NCBI GenBank assembly: GCA_034439575.1
Contig: JAWXAQ010000007.1
Span: 64,001-128,000, forward strand
DNA: 64,000 nucleotides
Direction of reading: 5' to 3'
DNA from: Leptospira sp.
Lineage (GTDB): Bacteria; Spirochaetota; Leptospiria; Leptospirales; Leptospiraceae
Part shown: positions 37,871 through 63,165 of the stretch, piece by piece
Layout: the number at the start of each line of letters is the position of its first letter
Numbering within the stretch: the stretch's first letter is position 1
Notes under the pieces: model-generated
What the model was told of the DNA's origin: nothing
Databases searched by the model: none
Seen by the model: the letters and a program-made list of their open reading frames with translations, nothing else
Made by a program: the position numbers and the translations under genes

Positions 37871-38026
37871 TTTAAAAACCTTTTTGATGGTCTTTTTAAT
37901 ACAATTGTTTCCAATAGCAAGGAATTTTTGGTAGGTATTTTGGAGACTATAATGGAATTCAATATGTCGCCTAATTATAATTAAATGGCGTACCTAGTTC
38001 CCATCCCGGGGCTGTCGATAGCAAAC

Positions 38027-38115
38027 CTCGCTCCCATCTCCCTTCCCTCTCGCACTCCTGCTCGAAGGAAGGACTACGACATCCATGTCTCCGTTACCGA
38101 TGGAAACAAGCTTTG
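38027..38115 (-). repeat. Structured dispersed repeat copy 1 (two GGA-loop hairpins; TwoAYGGAY/CsrA-site-like)
   Basis: Near-identical to 41655-41742; minus-strand hairpins GAC-AUGGAU-GUC and GC-AGGAGU-GC within a closing stem. Confidence 0.8.
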
Positions 38116-38735
38116 CTAGGTGAAGAAAGATCTATTAACCAAATTATTATAATGAGATATAGATCAATGCATTTACAAATATTGTAAATTGGTTAAATCT
38201 TTCATTTTTGATAAAAATCTCATTTTATGACAATGGATTTCTTAAATTCGAAGAAATAAATTATTTCTTATTTAAATTCACATTTTTTTTAAAATATTTA
38301 TCTAGCGCTTAATTTTTGGAATAACATGGGACTGTAAGTTTATATTGTCATTAAAATTTCTGTTTTAGCGAAGAATGTTTCTGTAATTGAACTTTTTACG
38401 AGGCAAGATTTATTGACGATGAAATAAGGCTTTGGCAACTATTGACTATTTTTTGGGTCTCACTAAGAATGAGATTCCTTCCACAAGTTGACAATCGATA
38501 ATATACTACTTTTCTTAACCTCCTCCGATGTCGAATATCATAAGAGACATAATAGTCTTGTAAATGTATAAGCTAAGAATTAAGACTATTTTGTACGGGG
38601 TGAACCGTTTTGGATTCGATACTTCAATAATGGAAAAACTATAACTTAAATCCTCAGTGGTTAATTGAGATTCAATAAAATATATCTGGCAATTTCGTTG
38701 TATTAAATAGCTATGAAATAAAAGTTTATATATTC

Positions 38736-40004
38736 ATGAAAAAAATGGTTAACGCGAAACATATAGCTTTCTTTCTCACATTTTGCATTTTTACGCTCAT
38801 CAGTTATGGCATTTTTATTTATAGTTTTTCATTGAACTTACCCATGTGGGATGATTATGATTCTGCACTAGGTTTTTTAAATAGTTGGTCATCAGAAATT
38901 AATTATAATGATAGGATTCAATTATTATTTTCTCAACACAATGAGCACAGAATTGTACTTACAAGATTGATAGAATTATCATATTTCAAAATTTTTAACA
39001 ATTTGAATTTTTTTCACTTAATATTAATATCCAATGTATTTCTCTTTGTTATAATCGGACTTCATGTCTTTTATTTCTATAAATACCAATATGAATATTT
39101 TTGGCAATTAACAACAATTTGCCTCTTCCTTTTGTTATCACCAATTCAATGGGAAGCCCAACTTTGGACATGCGGTGGGTTGCAGAATTTTGGCCAGGTA
39201 ATGTTCTCAATGGCAACCATCTTTCTAATAAAACCAGTTCTAACGAAAACAGGATATGTCAAGATTGCACATGCAGCATTGCTTTTGCTATTCAGCGGAA
39301 TAAATATCTTCATTGGGGGTGCGTTCGTTCCTCTTTTTATAAGCATTAGTTTATTTTTCTTAATTAAGAGAGAATATAAATTAGTTACCCTTTCTATTTT
39401 TGTGTATAGTGCATTCTTTTATTTCTACTTCGTACTTCTTAATTATAATCATTCGCCTCATCCATCACCTTCCATATTCAATTTTATAGTATTCTTTTTT
39501 GCCTTTGTTGGTAATGGACTGCATATCTTTCATCCGTTAATAACCCTTCTTTGTGGTTTATTCATTGTAATACTTGGGTTTTATTTTAGGAAAATAATTT
39601 TAAGAAACGAAATACACCTTCTTTACATAATTTTCTTTATTCTCGTAAATTTGTTAACTGATTATTCAAGATCATATATGGACCCTGCTTTGGGGCATTC
39701 CAGTCGATATGCAATTTATAGTTTAATACTAATTTTATTTTTAATTGAAATGTCCTTGTATTATTCAGTAATAAGAAAGTTTTTCACTTGGATTGTGTTT
39801 CTTTGCTTATTGCATTTTTTAGTATCATTTAATTCTGTTTTAAAAAATCGCGATTTCCTTGCCAGATATAACACAACTAAATCAGATATTTTCTATCCGG
39901 ATATCTCGGTTGCTATTGAAAAATATAATCTAGCGAAGATGAATAAGATATTTAGTAGCACAGAATTAGATTTGAATATTGAAAAATATTCCAACATGAA
40001 ATAA
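38736..40004 (+). CDS. Polytopic membrane protein, GT-C/GtrII-like glycosyltransferase candidate
   Basis: PMWDDY and QHNEHRI luminal motifs after TM1; many TM segments; very AT-rich. Confidence 0.65.
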   Translation: MKKMVNAKHIAFFLTFCIFTLISYGIFIYSFSLNLPMWDDYDSALGFLNSWSSEINYNDRIQLLFSQHNEHRIVLTRLIELSYFKIFNNLNFFHLILISNVFLFVIIGLHVFYFYKYQYEYFWQLTTICLFLLLSPIQWEAQLWTCGGLQNFGQVMFSMATIFLIKPVLTKTGYVKIAHAALLLLFSGINIFIGGAFVPLFISISLFFLIKREYKLVTLSIFVYSAFFYFYFVLLNYNHSPHPSPSIFNFIVFFFAFVGNGLHIFHPLITLLCGLFIVILGFYFRKIILRNEIHLLYIIFFILVNLLTDYSRSYMDPALGHSSRYAIYSLILILFLIEMSLYYSVIRKFFTWIVFLCLLHFLVSFNSVLKNRDFLARYNTTKSDIFYPDISVAIEKYNLAKMNKIFSSTELDLNIEKYSNMK

Positions 40005-40448
40005 TAGAAATCTTGAAAAATTATTTTTTATTCAATTTGAATATTAAAAGGTAAAATAGCAGTTATTAAGCGGTCTTACTTTATTGATGAGCGACTAAAT
40101 ATTTATTGTCGCCTTTCCTTTATACAGACTGATATCTATACTGGCTAATCTATCAAGAAGGCTTGGTATTCAAATTTGGAATGCCAATTAAATAAAATTG
40201 CAAAGTTTTAACTAAAAATAAATTGCTTGTGCTTCCATAATTTTTGCCAAATAATCTTTCTGATGTAAAGCCTTTGTTATTATTTCGATCTTCACTTTGG
40301 GCACCTCGCATCCGTTATATTGAGCAACACTTCGTTAATGACGCGCTCTCCACTTCGGTCGTGCTCATCACTGCATCTATAACATTGAATATACTACTTT
40401 TTTAATGCTAATGGCCAATTCTATCCTCAATTGAGAATTGGAATAAAA

Positions 40449-40634
40449 TCAATCTAAAATTTTTTGAATCCAATATCTTATAAGGAAATTTATGAAAGAT
40501 ATATTTCCTGATTTCTCCAATTTCAACAGACCAAGTTTTCGGAAAGCCAAATATCTTTTTTGAAGCCTTCCAAATGTAATCTCGAAATCGTAAGCCAAGA
40601 CCCTCGTATTCAATTTCGTAAAAAAAAATGGCAT
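40449..40634 (-). pseudogene. Possible degenerate winged-helix fragment
   Basis: TRVLAYDFEITFGRLQK...LGLL....GN pattern resembles wHTH; short and without clear RBS. Confidence 0.25.
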
Positions 40635-40667
40635 CTTCTAACGTATGAGCTTACCAACGTAAGTGCA

Positions 40668-41123
40668 TTATAAAATAGAATTTAATAACTTTTGATTATT
40701 GTTCTTAAAGGGATTAATGATTTTTAGTTTATTTATCTTAGCACCATCATTAAAATCTTCAGAAAATAAATAATCACAATCAAGATCCAAAGCCGCTAAA
40801 GCTATTAAAGAATCATAGTAAGACAATTTATTTTTTTCTCTCAATTTTAGAGCATTTTTATAGAAATTTATGTTTGGATAAAAAGAACATATCGGATCTA
40901 GAATTTTATCAATTAAACTTAAAATATCTTTTTCCTTCATAGGTGGTTGACCTCTTGTAAGCATAACATTGCTAAATTCTTGGATAACTTGGTAACTTAC
41001 GTAAAACCTATCGGATTTGAATGAAGCCTTAATAATATTTGAAGAGATTTTCTTTTTATCTAAATCCGTTGCAGAGAAGAAATAAATAAAGATATTTGTA
41101 TCAATGAAAACTTTACCTTTCAT
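40668..41123 (-). CDS. vapC: PIN-domain toxin (VapC-like)
   Basis: FIDTNIF, QVIQE, YYDSLI, SEDF. Confidence 0.9.
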   Translation of the reverse strand: MKGKVFIDTNIFIYFFSATDLDKKKISSNIIKASFKSDRFYVSYQVIQEFSNVMLTRGQPPMKEKDILSLIDKILDPICSFYPNINFYKNALKLREKNKLSYYDSLIALAALDLDCDYLFSEDFNDGAKINKLKIINPFKNNNQKLLNSIL

Positions 41124-41331
41124 TAGCTTCTTCGCGTGTGATTTTTCTATTAATCTTTACATATTCGAATTTTTTTAAATAACTATCTAAATCAAAGTCT
41201 TTAGGTTCAGACTCAGAATAAGCACGAAGCCAATCATTAAATATGTCATTTAAAGATCTTTTTTGTTGACTTGCTTTTAAACGAGCTTTATCGATTGCCC
41301 TCTCATCTGCTCTAAAAGTAATATTTTTCAT
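41113..41331 (-). CDS. RHH-type antitoxin (VapB-like)
   Basis: MKNITFRAD beta-ribbon start, TREEANER end, overlaps PIN gene start. Confidence 0.85.
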   Translation of the reverse strand: MKNITFRADERAIDKARLKASQQKRSLNDIFNDWLRAYSESEPKDFDLDSYLKKFEYVKINRKITREEANER

Positions 41332-41340
41332 CAATTTTAA

Positions 41341-41361
41341 ATTACACGAATTTCGTGCAAT
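41341..41361. promoter_or_regulatory. Palindromic operator upstream of TA operon
   Basis: ATT-A-CACGAA-T-TTCGTG-C-AAT about 10 bp before the antitoxin start. Confidence 0.6.
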
Positions 41362-41468
41362 TAGTCAAACTAATAATTGAATAAATTAATTGCACTTTGA
41401 AGAATAAATCTGACCGGTTTATCTAAACTCGTAATAAGTCCATCAGTGCCTTTTCTAAGATCCCTACC

Positions 41469-41563
41469 CCCCGCGACACCGATTGTAGCGGACATCCTTC
41501 CGTTATTATAAAATATTTGGGTCATAAAAAATTCGGAAGATGGGAGCGGAAAGCGGGTTCGGG
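41469..41563. repeat. REP/MITE-like palindromic element
   Basis: GATTGTAGCGGA / GATGGGAGCGGA internal direct repeats, CTTCCG...CGGAAG and CCCGC...GCGGG inverted arms. Confidence 0.5.
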
Positions 41564-41619
41564 TAATGTATATTATGTGACTGGACAGATGAGATCCGAG
41601 TCGCCCTAATCTTATAAAT

Positions 41620-41645
41620 AAAAAAGCCCGATCATAAGACCGGGC
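41620..41645 (-). terminator. Intrinsic terminator of acyl-CoA dehydrogenase transcript
   Basis: Minus strand GCCCGGTC-TTAT-GATCGGGC followed by T run. Confidence 0.8.
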
Positions 41646-41654
41646 AATCTAACA

Positions 41655-41742
41655 CTCGTTCCCATCTCCCTTCCCTCTCACATCCGTGCTCGAAGGAAGG
41701 ACTTCGCCATCCTGGATACGTTACCGATGGAAACAAGCTTTG
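41655..41742 (-). repeat. Structured dispersed repeat copy 2 (two GGA-loop hairpins)
   Basis: Minus-strand loops CC-AGGAU-GG and GC-ACGGAU-GU; lies between acyl-CoA dehydrogenase stop and terminator. Confidence 0.8.
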
Positions 41743-41777
41743 ATGGCCGGAGAAAGATCGAACAACAAGAACTTTAT

Positions 41778-45657: not shown

Positions 45658-45756
45658 TTTGATATCTACAATTTTGACAATTGCCGAAATAAACTAAAAA
45701 TAGCAATTCTTTCTCGTAAGGTTTTTCGATTGATCACTTCCATCGAAACAAACATC

Positions 45757-45783
45757 GTTTCCATCGGTAGCGGAGACATGGAT
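45757..45783 (+). repeat. Partial copy 3 of the GGA-hairpin repeat, overlapping AraC RBS and start
   Basis: GTTTCCATCGGTAGCGGAGACATGGAT matches the reverse complement of 38081-38107 at 26/27 nt. Confidence 0.75.
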
Positions 45784-46572
45784 TTTGAAAGCAAAAGCAG
45801 ACTTTATTTATGGAATAGTCGAGTTATGTTTGCAACTAACAGTATGCAAACGGATTTCCATTCGCATTATGCCGCTACACTTGCCATTTCATTAGATAAA
45901 AATATTACAATCGAAACGGAGATAGGCAAAGAAGATTACCGCGTTGCTTTAGTGGGCCCAAATACTTACCACCGAACCATTTCGCCTGGTGTAGAAATGA
46001 TAGCCTTACTCATAGATCCAGAAACTTATGAATTTGGTTCGATTTCTAATTCTATTTCAACGGGGGAAGTGAAAAGATTAGACATTCAAAAATTTTACCC
46101 CCTAATCGATTCTCTTTGGTCATTGTATTATGGTAATTTGAACGACGAAGACGCCACCAAACTTCAATTAAATTTACTTCGAACTGTATATCCATTCGAA
46201 TCATTAGAAAAGGATATAGATCCAAGGATTCAAAAGATTGCAAAAAAAATTCGATTAGAAGTCCCCGATAGCATTCGCATGAAAGAAATTGGAAAAGACT
46301 TTTCTATTTCAGAAGATAGATTGATTCGATTGTTTAAAGAAAATCTAGGAATTCCACTTCGAAGGTATTTATTATGGGTTCGTATCCTACGGGCAGTCAA
46401 AGAAATTAAAGCTGGGAATAACTTAACAGAAGCGGCTCATGCAGCTGGATTTTCTGATTCTGCTCATTTTTCCAGAACCTTTAAAGAAAACTTTGGATTT
46501 ATACCTTCGTTATTTTTCGGACATCTTAAAACCGCAGAAGTTCGATTTTGTGAACCAGATGATATTTATTAA
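45778..46572 (+). CDS. AraC-family transcriptional regulator
   Basis: HSHYA cupin-like N-terminus; AAHAAGFSDSAHFSRTFK; start MDFESK with GGAG RBS. Confidence 0.93.
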   Translation: MDFESKSRLYLWNSRVMFATNSMQTDFHSHYAATLAISLDKNITIETEIGKEDYRVALVGPNTYHRTISPGVEMIALLIDPETYEFGSISNSISTGEVKRLDIQKFYPLIDSLWSLYYGNLNDEDATKLQLNLLRTVYPFESLEKDIDPRIQKIAKKIRLEVPDSIRMKEIGKDFSISEDRLIRLFKENLGIPLRRYLLWVRILRAVKEIKAGNNLTEAAHAAGFSDSAHFSRTFKENFGFIPSLFFGHLKTAEVRFCEPDDIY

Positions 46573-56417: not shown

Positions 56418-57593
56418 TTAAAAATCCCATTTGCCTGATACATAATTTCTACCAATTACCATTTTATGAACTTCCGATGGCCCATCAGCAATCCGAGCCG
56501 CTCTTGCGTCTCTGTAAAAAAGTTCCAAAGGTAAATCTCTCGAATATCCTTTACCACCACAAATTTGAATTGCCGTATCTATCGTGTTACATAGTGCTTC
56601 GCTGACTTTCCATTTTGCCATCGAAGTTTCTTGCCTCGCATCTTTTCCATTCTGCAATAACCATGCAGCCTTTAATGTTAGCAAAAATCCCATTTCAATG
56701 GATGTTGCACATTCTGCAAACATCCATTGGATTCCTTGGTGGTCCGCAATTTTTGCAGAAAATACTTCTCTTTCTTTAGCATATTCTCTTGCGATACTGA
56801 GAGCTCTTCGGGCTAATCCCGTCCATCGCATACAATGCGTTAACCTGGCAGGTCCTAGCCTTTCTTGCGACAATCTAAATCCTTCTGCCACTCGACCGAG
56901 CACCATATTTTCTGGTACTTCCACATTTTCAAAATTTAATTCACAATGACCGCCAGGTCCGTGGGACCCCATAAGTTCGATTTCACGAACCATTGTGTAT
57001 CCTTTCGCATCAGTCGGAACAAGAAACATTGTAGTTTTGCGAAAACTACCGTTTACTTTCGCCATTACGATTAAATATTTTGCTCCATTCGCACCAGTGC
57101 AGTACCACTTCCGACCATTTAATATATATTTGTCGCCCACCTTTTCCGCATTAGTTTGCAAACTTGTAGGGTCAGACCCCGCGCCAGGTGAAGGTTCAGT
57201 CATAGCAAATCCAGTTCTTAACTCACCTCGTATCAGTGGATGTAGTATGAGTTCTTTTTGTTTTTCTGTGGCCGCAAGTGACAGAAGATGCATATTCCCT
57301 TCATCAGGAGCATCACAATTAAAAATATAAGGAGCAATTGGGGAACGACCAATTTCAGAGAAAATAATACATGTTCCTATTTGGTCTAATCCTAGTCCGC
57401 CTTCCGACTTTGGTAAATGTGGAGTCCAAAAACCAGCGGTTTTTACTTTAGCGCGTGCTTGTTGGTTTACTGCTTCGGGCATCCTTCCTTTTTCATAATC
57501 ATAAAATTTTTCAAGAGGTATAATCTCATTTTTTATTAATTCACGAATCTTAAGGCGGATAGTTTCGACTGCTTCGGGTATTTCAAAGTCCAT
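56418..57593 (-). CDS. Acyl-CoA dehydrogenase (ACAD10/11, LvaC-like)
   Basis: [29 protein letters not shown]. Confidence 0.92.
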
Positions 57594-62823: not shown

Positions 62824-62909
62824 TATCAACCATTCTAAAAATCGAACCAAATCTGGAATCAAAAATCATTGACCCTTATCCTTCGCAAAAAACTATGTAT
62901 ATACCAATT

Positions 62910-62980
62910 GCGGGTGTGGTGTAACGGTAGCACAGCAGCCTTCCAAGCTTCTGGCGAGGGTTCGAGTCCCTTCGCCCGCA
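62910..62980 (+). tRNA. tRNA-Gly (TCC)
   Basis: GCGGGTG acceptor, CT-TCC-AA loop, GGTTCGAGTCC T-arm; CCA not encoded. Confidence 0.95.
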
Positions 62981-63165
62981 AAGATCCAGTCTTAATTCAA
63001 CAAAAACCAAACTCCCATTTAACAACAGAGCCACGAAGGCCGACGTCGAGGGAGTCAAGCCTCGGAGCTTAAATCGGCACGAGGCCGATTTGCGGAGAGG
63101 GCTTTGTCCCTTCGCCCGCAAAGATCCAGTCTTAGTTCATCAAAAACCAAACTCCCATTTAACAA
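62966..63165 (+). repeat. 60-bp direct repeat (tRNA-Gly 3' end plus trailer) enclosing an 80-bp hairpin insert
   Basis: 62966-63025 vs 63106-63165, two mismatches. Confidence 0.9.

Follow-up and report, generated by a model that had tools for sequence, protein, structure and literature searches.

A structured repeat in the genome of a Leptospira raises the question of whether it is a CsrA-binding RNA, perhaps even the Csr sRNA equivalent that this lineage seemed to lack, as the original prediction had it, or a small repeat of another kind lodged beside neighbouring genes. The window considered here is the whole stretch of DNA that was analysed, 64 kb in length. The repeat measures about 110 bases and is present in two long-form copies with a common orientation (minus strand), followed by a partial third copy (Table 1). 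The host is a free-living Leptospira, and it carries here a small insert of probably foreign DNA with a repeat copy on either side.

Table 1. Features of the repeat copies and of the genes around them (positions in the window; the score is that of the covariance model).
Feature	Position	Strand	Remarks
Lipoprotein-like gene, 215 aa	37223..37870	-	signal peptide with cysteine
Second copy of the P1 3'-arm box	37997..38005	+	22 nt downstream of copy 1 (minus strand)
Copy 1, long form	38022..38135	-	139.8 bits
Copy 1, CU-rich 5' tail	38135-38111	-
Copy 1, P1	38110-38099 with 38038-38027	-
Copy 1, P2 hairpin	38089-38078	-
Copy 1, P3 arm	38073-38040	-
Low-GC segment between copies 1 and 2	38136..41649		3,514 nt
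Orphan polytopic membrane protein, 422 aa	38736-40004	+	in the low-GC segment
PIN toxin	40668-41123	-	in the low-GC segment
Small antitoxin, partner of the PIN toxin	41113-41334	-	in the low-GC segment
Flavo-1 RNA	41462-41564	+	in the low-GC segment
Intrinsic terminator	41616..41645	-	8-pair stem with 6 G-C pairs, then T-run
Copy 2, long form	41650..41762	-	132.9 bits
Copy 2, P1	41737-41726 with 41666-41655	-
Copy 2, P2	41715-41707	-
Copy 2, P3	41701-41668	-
Acyl-CoA dehydrogenase gene, 558 aa	41778..43454	-	copy 2 in its 3' UTR
Copy 3, partial, opposite orientation	45749..45783	+	19.5 bits, E 0.006
AraC-family regulator gene	45778..46572	+	start codon confirmed by N-terminal conservation

The presence of two copies of about 90 nt in one orientation was confirmed by blastn (87.6% identity over 89 nt, with 78 of the 89 core positions matching), and their alignment extends to 114 columns, 93 of them identical, over the full extents given in Table 1. 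The aligned region includes a 5' tail, CU-rich and conserved over about 20 nt, that is absent from the earlier description. A 20-mer of the element has exactly two occurrences in the 64 kb, where shuffles lead one to expect 0.00. The strong similarity between the copies stops a few bases past the closing helix; the resemblance of their upstream flanks is not significant (reached by 273 of 1,000 shuffles) and that of the downstream flanks is marginal (24 of 1,000), a weak match resuming about 40 nt further on. The term "dispersed" had overstated the spread of the repeat, as a covariance-model search of the 64 kb with all filters off returned copies 1 and 2 and one partial copy, all within 8 kb. 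The P1 3'-arm box (GTTYCCATC) has eight matches, against 1.14 expected, five of which lie in or beside the three copies; the one just downstream of copy 1 could be an alternative partner of the P1 5' strand, or a relic.

The minus strand, already put forward as the RNA, is the favoured one and folds far better (-48.8 kcal/mol in copy 1 and -36.5 kcal/mol in copy 2) than the plus strand (-27.0 and -26.8 kcal/mol). The fold of copy 1 has a z-score of -5.72, with none of 200 shuffles folding equally well, and that of copy 2 a z-score of only -1.75 (8 of 200 shuffles), so that it is not exceptional alone. Every wobble pair of the stems reads as G-U when taken on the minus strand; in copy 1 they make up 5 of the 29 pairs, without any A-C mismatch, a one-sidedness with a p of about 0.03 by our own arithmetic. 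For each copy in the window, the strand on which the wobbles are G-U coincides with the sense strand of the adjoining gene. The predicted minus-strand fold consists of a 12-bp closing helix (P1) with G-U pairs, a three-way junction and two GGA-tipped hairpins. The outer stem and the two hairpins had been described correctly, but the 10-bp arm under the second hairpin had been overlooked: in P3 this hairpin is carried by a helix of 9-10 bp, with a pyrimidine strand against a purine strand, which makes the whole fold a three-way junction. In the favoured folds the 3' arm of P1 has a probability of being unpaired of 0.00-0.02; when the 5' tail is included, the minimum-energy fold of copy 2 loses P1, and the tail pairs with the 3' arm instead.

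The differences between the two long copies are unevenly placed, with 10 of the 11 core differences in the two hairpin tips, which occupy 23 of the 89 columns (p = 1.1e-5), and a single one in the closing helix, the junction and the P3 stem together. The alignment of copies 1 and 2 bears out the earlier remark that the tips differ while pairing and GGA are kept, the pairing by way of one compensatory change and several one-sided changes. Covariation among four sequences is not significant (one pair changed on both sides; shuffling gave an equal or higher score in 53 of 500 cases), in an alignment that was itself fitted to the covariance model. Neither is the retention of GGA among the differences between the copies significant (p about 0.08-0.16).

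Copy 3 covers 35 nt and corresponds by homology to the 5' half of the element, namely the 5' strand of P1, the junction, and the 5' half and loop of P2. It is identical to copy 1 at 32 of 35 positions (blastn, 27 nt at 96%) and lies within a covariance-model match spanning 45729-45859. The same 35 nt constitute the leader, the Shine-Dalgarno-like GGAG, the ATG (45778) and the first two codons of the AraC-family gene, which has 503 relatives at E<=1e-20, the named ones up to 89% identical. A hairpin predicted for this copy pairs the Shine-Dalgarno sequence and the AUG.

The GC content of the segment between copies 1 and 2 is 29.4%, where the mean is 35.6% (sd 1.9); at the 3.5-kb scale this is the GC minimum of the window, with 0.17% of 3.5-kb windows as low. 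Relatives of the membrane protein encoded in the segment reach at most 29% identity, in contrast to those of the AraC-family gene. Among the scanned ORFs of the 64-kb window, none was assigned to an integrase, transposase or other recombinase family, and by eye no consistent target-site duplication was found at copies 1 and 2 or at the relative in another genome (locus L017, below). The bracketing of this islet by the two copies could be a coincidence. On the minus strand, copy 2 follows the stop codon of the dehydrogenase gene after 16 nt and is itself followed, after 9 nt, by the terminator. Some 150 nt separate copy 1 from the lipoprotein-like gene downstream of it, whose distribution among relatives is patchy (10 matches, the best named ones being L. 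ognonensis at 67% and L. ryugenii at 60%). A promoter scan gave 24 sites where 23.1 are expected by chance, and no promoter was demonstrable for copy 2.

Outside the window, the distribution was scanned with a 23-nt core pattern, exact match required, in one genome for each of 185,579 species. The scan did not return the window's own copies. It returned 28 loci, of which one is a real relative, L017, in another Leptospira genome (34.8 bits). L017 is a short form, a bare hairpin with a 9-nt loop and without P2 and P3, having a single GGA in this plain loop; the segment missing from it is the 51-nt P2+P3, which in the window copies is bounded on both sides by the same 5-nt word. The repeat is very rare: three copies were seen in the window, clustered within 8 kb, and a single one in another genome. 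L017 is located behind a terminator that follows a 5S rRNA gene, and its G-U-competent strand is that of this upstream gene. Its position resembles that of the E. coli rrA/rrB/rrF sRNAs, which, according to PMC8144298, lie between two terminators after 5S rRNA and bind Hfq and CsrA in vitro; apart from the GGA in the loop the resemblance is positional only, and the L017 region, unlike theirs, is a tandem array of repeats made of a 5S end and a terminator.

The repeat matches no Rfam family at the gathering threshold over the whole window. At E<=10, the 601-nt stretches around copies 1 and 2 gave 6 and 8 matches, none of them to TwoAYGGAY or CsrB/Rsm, so that neither of the suggested memberships is supported. 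The TwoAYGGAY motif, for which PMC2864571 gives occurrences in the human gut, gamma-Proteobacteria and Clostridiales, also has two GGA-loop hairpins, and one loop per Leptospira copy fits AYGGAY (the P2 loop of copy 1 and the P3 tip of copy 2). However, the other loop does not fit (the P3 tip of copy 1, and the P2 loop of copy 2, which lacks the Y), the second hairpin stands on a 10-bp arm and the taxon differs; with only one of the two loops per copy reading AYGGAY and no match at E<=10, membership was rejected. Against a CsrB/Rsm-type sponge stand the absence of an Rfam match at E<=10, the two to three exposed GGA and, in the exact-match scan, the lack of conservation across the csrA-carrying lineage. 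Sponges of that type carry five or more GGA in loops or single strands per RNA.

The exposure of the GGA motifs agrees with what had been proposed. In copy 1, three GGA are predicted to be exposed (probability of being unpaired 0.91-1.00, including one in the junction at 0.91), whereas the remaining three of its six are paired. In copy 2, one is unpaired with a probability of 1.00 and another with only 0.48-0.59, the other GGA also being paired. Both copies have GGA in the P2 loop and in the P3 tip, with differing neighbouring bases, and in the whole window 28 of 1,620 small predicted hairpin loops contain GGA (1.7%). By eye, the P2 of copy 1 matches 10 of the 12 positions of the CsrA consensus, and the P3 tip of copy 2 matches 9 of 12, the consensus being that quoted in PMC8668096. 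That paper describes the binding of a GGA hexaloop by Leptospira CsrA in EMSA, abolished by mutation of the GGA. Given the exposed GGA, each copy might be a local CsrA site; this is plausible, if unlikely. The repeat is probably not a CsrB-like global sponge or a genus-wide Csr sRNA. The idea that it supplies a Csr sRNA otherwise missing from the lineage is not supported: the exact-match scan of 185,579 species yielded a single real relative, which has neither GGA hairpin, and the fliW gene adjoins csrA in Leptospira, so that a protein antagonist of CsrA is already available.

A narrower role in the Csr system would be that of a decoy or recruiting RNA about 135-150 nt long, comprising copy 2 and ending at the terminator, that is either produced together with the dehydrogenase mRNA or cleaved from it, with copy 1 as a paralogue. 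Each copy would offer two to three GGA sites to a CsrA dimer, and because the copies mimic the ribosome-binding region of the AraC-family mRNA, with which they have 35 nt in common, they would compete with that mRNA for the protein. The persistence of GGA in both hairpins despite differing surroundings, the third exposed GGA in the junction of copy 1, the near-consensus matches and the GGA-dependent binding described in PMC8668096, the low base rate of GGA in small loops and the terminator directly after copy 2 agree with such a role. CsrB/CsrC and RsmX/Y/Z likewise have GGA in hairpin loops, and the repeat resembles them in the terminator-ended copy 2 and in having one site per copy close to the consensus quoted in PMC8668096. 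In contrast to those RNAs, it exposes two to three GGA where they expose many, matches no Rfam family, has no demonstrable promoter of its own, is nearly absent from other Leptospira (where the one copy has a single plain-loop GGA), and occurs in a lineage with fliW beside csrA. The retention of GGA is not significant, and the purine richness of the element's 3' half makes GGA frequent there in any case, three of the six in copy 1 being paired. A decoy is regarded as rather improbable. The same low rating is given to a DNA recombination site, where the palindrome would be the target of a recombinase encoded elsewhere (as in integron attC, Vibrio VCR or lox-like sites), the islet an inserted cassette leaving one copy per side and the RNA fold a by-product of the palindrome. 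Copies of one orientation bracket exactly the lowest-GC 3.5 kb with its orphan gene and toxin-antitoxin pair, the similarity ends just past the closing helix, the ends are conserved around a variable centre with short and branched versions, resembling the variable terminal structure of attC sites, and folded single-stranded DNA also tolerates G-T wobbles. Against this, the scanned ORFs of the window include no integrase, transposase or other recombinase, there are two full sites and no array, the stem is continuous and free of extrahelical bases and of an unpaired central spacer, agreement of the terminal 7-mers with the attC box consensus is poor (4-6 of 7 by eye), the long copies lack the AAC triplet and a 60-nt spacer does not suit a lox-like site. 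The weak similarity that resumes about 40 nt downstream argues against a sharp crossover point, and copy 3 is inside a gene leader with no cassette alongside.

The element could also be a neutral relic, in which the AraC-leader region was duplicated locally and then underwent inverted duplication, leaving functionless hairpin-forming DNA in both UTRs. This accords with the very low copy number within 8 kb, the near absence elsewhere, the homology of the 5' half to a native gene leader and the lack of significant covariation; however, the differences are concentrated in the tips rather than the scaffold (10 against 1), every wobble pair is on one strand and a related hairpin is kept at a different locus of a different genome, and this origin is held to be about as improbable as the previous two. 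Considerably less probable is a trans-acting RNA, from copy 1 or 2, that would open the AraC leader hairpin and activate translation. Such anti-antisense activation of translation is that of DsrA with rpoS. The P1 3' arm is by construction complementary to the leader strand predicted to sequester the Shine-Dalgarno sequence and AUG (10-11 contiguous bases for copy 2), the leader hairpin itself is predicted, and copy 2 has a terminator and, with its tail, an alternative fold. This complementarity follows automatically from the homology and hence is not independent evidence, and the arm is locked in the 12-bp intramolecular helix. Least probable of all is a ligand-sensing riboswitch or other dedicated cis-regulator of a downstream gene, which the conserved three-way junction and stems, the placement of copy 1 upstream of a gene and the alternative pairings (tail with 3' arm, and the second 3'-arm box) would suit. 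It is nearly refuted already because of the unrelated gene contexts (the 3' end of the dehydrogenase, the 5' side of the lipoprotein gene, the start of the AraC-family gene and downstream of 5S rRNA); in addition, L017 lacks the junction altogether and Rfam has no match.

Two classes of mobile sequences were considered as assignments. Integron attC sites and Vibrio cholerae repeats are also imperfect palindromes of about 60-140 nt with conserved ends and a variable or branched centre, neighbouring sites being about 90% identical and cassettes often carrying toxin-antitoxin pairs. The Leptospira locus differs in having no integrase in 64 kb, two sites only and one copy inside a gene leader, and the repeat in its lack of extrahelical bases or a central unpaired spacer and in its poorly fitting end boxes. 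Assignment to attC or CALIN was rejected on the continuous stem without bulges, the end boxes, the lack of an array and the lack of a tyrosine recombinase in the scanned ORFs. A MITE was rejected as well: inverted ends are present, but there is no consistent flanking duplication by eye and no transposase in the window.

Here it is proposed, tentatively and at somewhat less than an even chance, that the element is a lineage-restricted repeat of the ERIC/REP kind, located in UTRs and tied to the insertion of the islet, which possibly binds CsrA and is not a genus-wide Csr sRNA. Of the "mobile or repeated two-site CsrA-binding module", the repetition and the minus-strand fold are borne out. Like the enterobacterial ERIC/REP/BIME elements, the repeat is an intergenic imperfect palindrome of about 100 nt that occupies 3' or 5' UTRs of genes unrelated to one another, forms its fold with G-U pairs on the putatively transcribed strand, here the sense strand of the flanking genes, and has partial copies as well as length variants by internal insertion or deletion, the short form being L017 without the 51-nt P2+P3. 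In the classic ERIC/REP families, copies number tens to hundreds. The Leptospira repeat departs from them in the three copies seen in the 64-kb window, all inside 8 kb, and one elsewhere, in a long form that is a three-way junction with GGA-tipped hairpins, in full copies that bracket an apparently acquired islet and in the homology of one half to a native gene leader.

Under this ERIC/REP-like reading, copies 1 and 2 would be paralogues of a small palindromic repeat, acting as minus-strand RNA in the UTRs of neighbouring genes. Its core would be a long hairpin, standing alone with a 9-nt loop in the other Leptospira; the 51-nt insert in the loop of this hairpin produces the three-way junction with two side hairpins ending in GGA. 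The 5' half of the core also serves, 4 kb away, as the leader, Shine-Dalgarno sequence and start of the AraC-family gene, where it is predicted to pair with the Shine-Dalgarno sequence and the AUG. The long copies probably bracket a horizontally acquired islet of 3.5 kb, and their duplication may most simply be tied to its insertion, or to recombination between copies. Copy 2 would be part of the acyl-CoA dehydrogenase transcript, forming a stable structure in its 3' UTR just ahead of the terminator, and copy 1 would be transcribed within the leader of the lipoprotein gene. Both copies may then have cis effects on the stability, processing or translation of the mRNAs, like repeats of the ERIC/REP type, with the exposed GGA making each of them a plausible local site for CsrA.

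The two homologous stretches of the original prediction are present in the window (blastn, 87.6% identity over 89 nt), and the MAFFT alignment of their minus strands has 93 identical columns out of 114. Their homology stood as claimed; however, the true unit is longer than the proposed ~90 nt, with a conserved CU-rich tail of ~20 nt ahead of the outer stem. A repeat search of the 64 kb found them to be the longest dispersed direct repeats, apart from the tRNA-end duplication, and a 20-mer of the element occurs twice vs 0.00 times expected from shuffles. Homology into the upstream flank was not significant (score reached by 273 of 1,000 shuffles) and that into the downstream flank was marginal (24 of 1,000). 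A 1-nt indel shifts the frame between the two copies and gives unrelated peptides, and a small coding ORF was therefore rejected.

Features of the repeat and its surroundings, in window coordinates
Feature	Position	Strand	Description
Copy 1	38022-38135	-	Long form of the repeat
Putative islet	38136-41649		Stretch between copies 1 and 2
Membrane protein	38736-40004	+	Polytopic, 422 aa; no Pfam, NCBIfam, PADLOC or PHROGs family
Toxin-antitoxin pair	40668-41334	-	PIN-domain toxin (151 aa, 25% GC) and overlapping 73-aa antitoxin (DUF6364)
Flavo-1 RNA (RF01705)	41462-41564	+	45.9 bits vs gathering score 42, E 1e-8 locally
Copy 2	41650-41762	-	Long form of the repeat
AraC leader	45735-45783	+	Word TTCCATCG in two direct copies 20 nt apart
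Copy 3	45749-45783	+	Partial copy, 35-nt block, opposite orientation
Second acyl-CoA dehydrogenase	56418-57593	-	391-aa paralogue with 26% identity to the first; no repeat copy after it
tRNA-Gly(tcc) repeat	62909-63165	+	tRNA 3' end plus ~45 nt (60 nt in total) recurs 140 nt on, 97% identity; 80-nt GC-rich spacer
P1			Predicted fold: 12-bp closing helix
P2			Predicted fold: short hairpin
P3			Predicted fold: 9-10-bp helix, then 2x2 internal loop, then 3-bp tip hairpin

The minus strand had been proposed as the RNA, and the predicted fold is indeed more stable there than on the plus strand in both copies. The minus-strand RNA of copy 1 reached -48.8 kcal/mol (z = -5.72, with 0 of 200 shuffles as good) and that of copy 2 reached -36.5 kcal/mol (z = -1.75, 8 of 200), vs -27.0 and -26.8 kcal/mol for the respective plus strands (z = -1.92 and -1.30). 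Additionally, the non-Watson-Crick pairs of the helices are all G-U on the minus strand, making up 5 of the 29 pairs in copy 1, with zero A-C mismatch; by our own arithmetic, such a one-strand wobble bias has p ~0.03 if mismatches are random between strands. The predicted fold is a three-way junction of the closing helix P1, the hairpin P2 and the arm P3. The second hairpin of the original prediction corresponds to the P3 tip and is as described, but the long helix beneath it had been overlooked. For copy 2, an alternative conformer is possible, because in the minimum-energy structure that includes the 5' tail, this tail pairs with the purine-rich 3' strand and P1 is not formed.

The two copies differ in 11 of the 89 core columns, and 10 of these differences fall within the 23 columns of the P2 region and P3 tip, which leaves a single one for P1, junction and P3 stem taken together (p = 1.1e-5 for this clustering under a uniform model). 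Pairing survives three kinds of change: P2 has one compensatory exchange (A-U to C-G), the P3 tip has G-U in place of G-C, and P1 has U-A in place of U-G. The GGA was found in both loops of both copies, as claimed, and its columns were spared by the 10 changes among the 23 with a chance p of ~0.08-0.16, which is not significant alone. Covariation was not significant in a single alignment of four sequences that had itself been fitted to the model (53 of 500 shuffles reach the score), and just one pair was changed on both sides.

An acyl-CoA dehydrogenase gene (558 aa) on the same strand has its stop codon 16 nt ahead of copy 2, and an intrinsic terminator with an 8-pair stem, six G-C pairs and a T-run follows 9 nt after the copy; because of this placement, copy 2 is almost certainly transcribed as the 3' UTR of the dehydrogenase gene. 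Copy 1 also shares its strand with the gene downstream of it, which begins ~150 nt away, encodes a 215-aa lipoprotein-like product and has a patchy distribution (10 hits); the intergenic region there is divergent. A TATAAT box stands directly upstream of the copy 1 tail, and the promoter scan was uninformative, at chance level (24 sites vs 23.1 expected). The P1 3'-arm box has a second occurrence 22 nt downstream of copy 1. The idea that copy 1 derives from the end of a second dehydrogenase gene, now decayed, was discarded, since tblastn found no remnant in 38136-38735.

At 29.4% GC (vs a mean of 35.6%, sd 1.9), the 3,514 nt that separate the copies have the lowest GC content of any 3.5-kb stretch in the window, and just 0.17% of 3.5-kb segments reach so low a value. 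When the 422-aa membrane protein encoded there was scored against the 8,000 candidates with most words in common, its only relatives besides itself were four distant proteins at <=29% identity; in contrast, the nearby AraC-family gene gave 503 relatives at E<=1e-20, and identity to named Leptospira reached 89%. PADLOC matched none of the five proteins compared for the islet genes, and PHROGs gave just one weak Arc-like hit, for the antitoxin. The Flavo-1 RNA sits between the antitoxin gene and the copy 2 terminator; Flavo-1 transcripts have been reported in pathogenic Leptospira, according to a preprint (10.1101/2023.03.29.534852). Its kinship to the repeat was examined through a 14-nt word in common with the 3' arm and rejected, the local alignment scores being reached by 62, 24, 143 and 314 of 500 shuffles. 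Other repeats bounding the islet were AT-rich chance matches only. Elsewhere in the window, the tRNA-Gly(tcc) repeat resembles a scar of the att type or a partly duplicated tRNA.

The 35-nt block of copy 3 shares 32 of 35 positions with copy 1 (blastn, 27 nt at 96%). It ends in GGAG, two bases and ATG GAT, in which the ATG at 45778 starts a 264-aa AraC-family protein, whose nearest named relatives are the saprophytes L. vanthielii, L. brenneri and L. kanakyensis (86-89%); L. bouyouniensis and Leptospira sp. WS39.C2 also count among the closest by the identity of this protein. Judging from the alignment with 12 homologues, this ATG is the real start codon, because the N-terminal segment beginning there is common to all 10 full-length proteins, from Leptospira and Leptonema; the remaining two are annotated from a downstream Met. 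In the predicted leader fold, an upstream GUUUCC word and its flank are paired with the Shine-Dalgarno and the AUG, and the Shine-Dalgarno GGA has a P(unpaired) of 0.01, so modelled; either a hairpin controlling translation or an operator could be at work here. One of two histories may explain the shared block: the leader of the AraC-family gene was taken up by the long repeat, or a 6-nt microhomology served to join a truncated repeat to the start of this gene.

At gathering thresholds, Rfam returned two tRNAs and the Flavo-1 RNA on the whole window; the repeat was unmatched and is unannotated in Rfam. Kinship to TwoAYGGAY or CsrB-type RNAs did not hold, as TwoAYGGAY, CsrB/C and Rsm were all unlisted at E<=10 in the 601-nt stretches around the two copies, which had 6 and 8 weak matches at this threshold. 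Of the matches that overlap copy 2, anti-hemB scores highest, at 20.5 bits vs a gathering score of 49.5, and is carried by the terminator. On the features tested, the repeat is not a TwoAYGGAY or CsrB/Rsm RNA, a MITE or an attC site. Literature word searches, which are blind to a sequence-level description, did not find the element described.

R1, a covariance model built from copies 1 and 2 and run over the window with filters off, scored the copies at 139.8 and 132.9 bits and gave a third match at 45729-45859 (+) with 19.5 bits (E 0.006), carried by the 35-nt block of copy 3; the remaining 15 matches had <=11.4 bits and E >=1. A collection of species-representative genomes was scanned with an exact-match 23-nt pattern of the P1 5' strand and the junction, with the loop GGA deliberately not required. 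This returned 28 loci vs about 35 chance matches expected; the three sites of the window itself are not among them, and therefore the window is absent from this collection or masked in it. Three of the 28 loci reached E<=1 with R1, and the Leptospira sp. MAG locus L017 scored 34.8 bits; two non-spirochaete loci (16.5 and 12.6 bits) were rejected, their scores stemming from the search pattern itself. L017 is a short form without P2 and P3, in which the closing helix is extended to ~18 bp and carries a 9-nt loop with one GGA. The extra 51 nt of the window copies are flanked on both sides by the same 5-nt word, and the difference would fit an insertion or a deletion by slippage. The short form is downstream of a 5S rRNA gene (2716-2600, within L017 1900-2720, minus strand), and between them are tandem units of ~240 nt, each repeating the 5S 3' end region and ending in an intrinsic terminator, with the hairpin after the last unit. 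The plasmid collection gave five records with coverage of at most 32% and E>=0.3, Leptospira being absent from them, and the phage collection gave one record; nothing in either was relevant.

Here it is tentatively proposed, as the preferred reading, that this is a lineage-restricted, UTR-embedded repeat of the ERIC/REP kind, duplicated in connection with the islet and acting in cis as a stable RNA structure, which may offer CsrA a local site in its exposed GGA. A CsrA decoy or sRNA is unlikely. Leptospira CsrA binds the flaB leader in a GGA-dependent manner, as shown in PMC8668096, which counts in favour of CsrA binding, as do the P(unpaired) values of 0.91, 1.00 and 1.00 at the three GGA sites of copy 1 and of 1.00 and 0.48-0.59 at the two of copy 2, with just 28 of the 1,620 small loops of predicted hairpins (1.7%) in the rest of the window containing GGA; however, the 3' half of the element is purine-rich and GGA is therefore common there anyway, and the GGA sites per RNA are few. 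Compared by eye with the consensus given in PMC8668096, P2 of copy 1 fits 10 of 12 positions and the P3 tip of copy 2 fits 9 of 12, but the Csr/Rsm and TwoAYGGAY models gave no match. Furthermore, csrA adjoins fliW, and that paper names FliW as the likely antagonist; a 'CsrA-like ncRNA' had already been predicted by motif density in L. biflexa, according to PMC4863578. The proposal of a "missing Csr sRNA" of the lineage is not supported, the family being nearly absent from other Leptospira in the exact-match scan and the sole relative lacking both hairpins. Less likely still is a more elaborate scheme, in which a spirochaete Csr system thought to be under FliW alone would have a target-mimic decoy in the dehydrogenase 3'-UTR RNA with its CsrA module, and a paralogue in the lipoprotein leader acting alongside. 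The module would copy the ribosome-binding region of the AraC-family mRNA, with 35 nt in common that include the Shine-Dalgarno and the AUG, the gene making the decoy RNA would be one of fatty-acid beta-oxidation, and lipid catabolism would be coupled to CsrA control of the AraC-family regulator.

The remaining readings move away from CsrA. The direct repeats bracket what looks like an acquired islet without its own recombinase, because integrase, transposase and reverse-transcriptase families were not reported for the scanned ORFs of the window, some of them compared with NCBIfam alone; a DNA recombination site at the cassette boundary is improbable, as much as the decoy or sRNA. A relic without function is doubtful to the same degree. 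An anti-antisense sRNA targeting the AraC leader is very unlikely; the whole-sequence duplex folds of the copies with this leader were forced end-to-end duplexes, which are not meaningful and were left out of the evidence. A riboswitch is the least credible, with hardly any probability, for this Rfam-unmatched element.

The very narrow distribution of the repeat caps its general importance. Fatty acids are the main carbon source of Leptospira; if the CsrA reading were true, CsrA would be tied to fatty-acid catabolism and, in the repeat, would gain its first RNA partner in a csrA-fliW lineage that is not an mRNA target. The same 35 nt form the predicted translation-start hairpin of one gene and half of a UTR-embedded junction, which is a testable lead. 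If the ERIC/REP-like reading holds, a Leptospira example would be added to the transcribed intergenic repeats, and the repeat would mark the edges of a recently acquired toxin-antitoxin islet, a boundary that helps in annotation and in following the genome plasticity of saprophytic leptospires.
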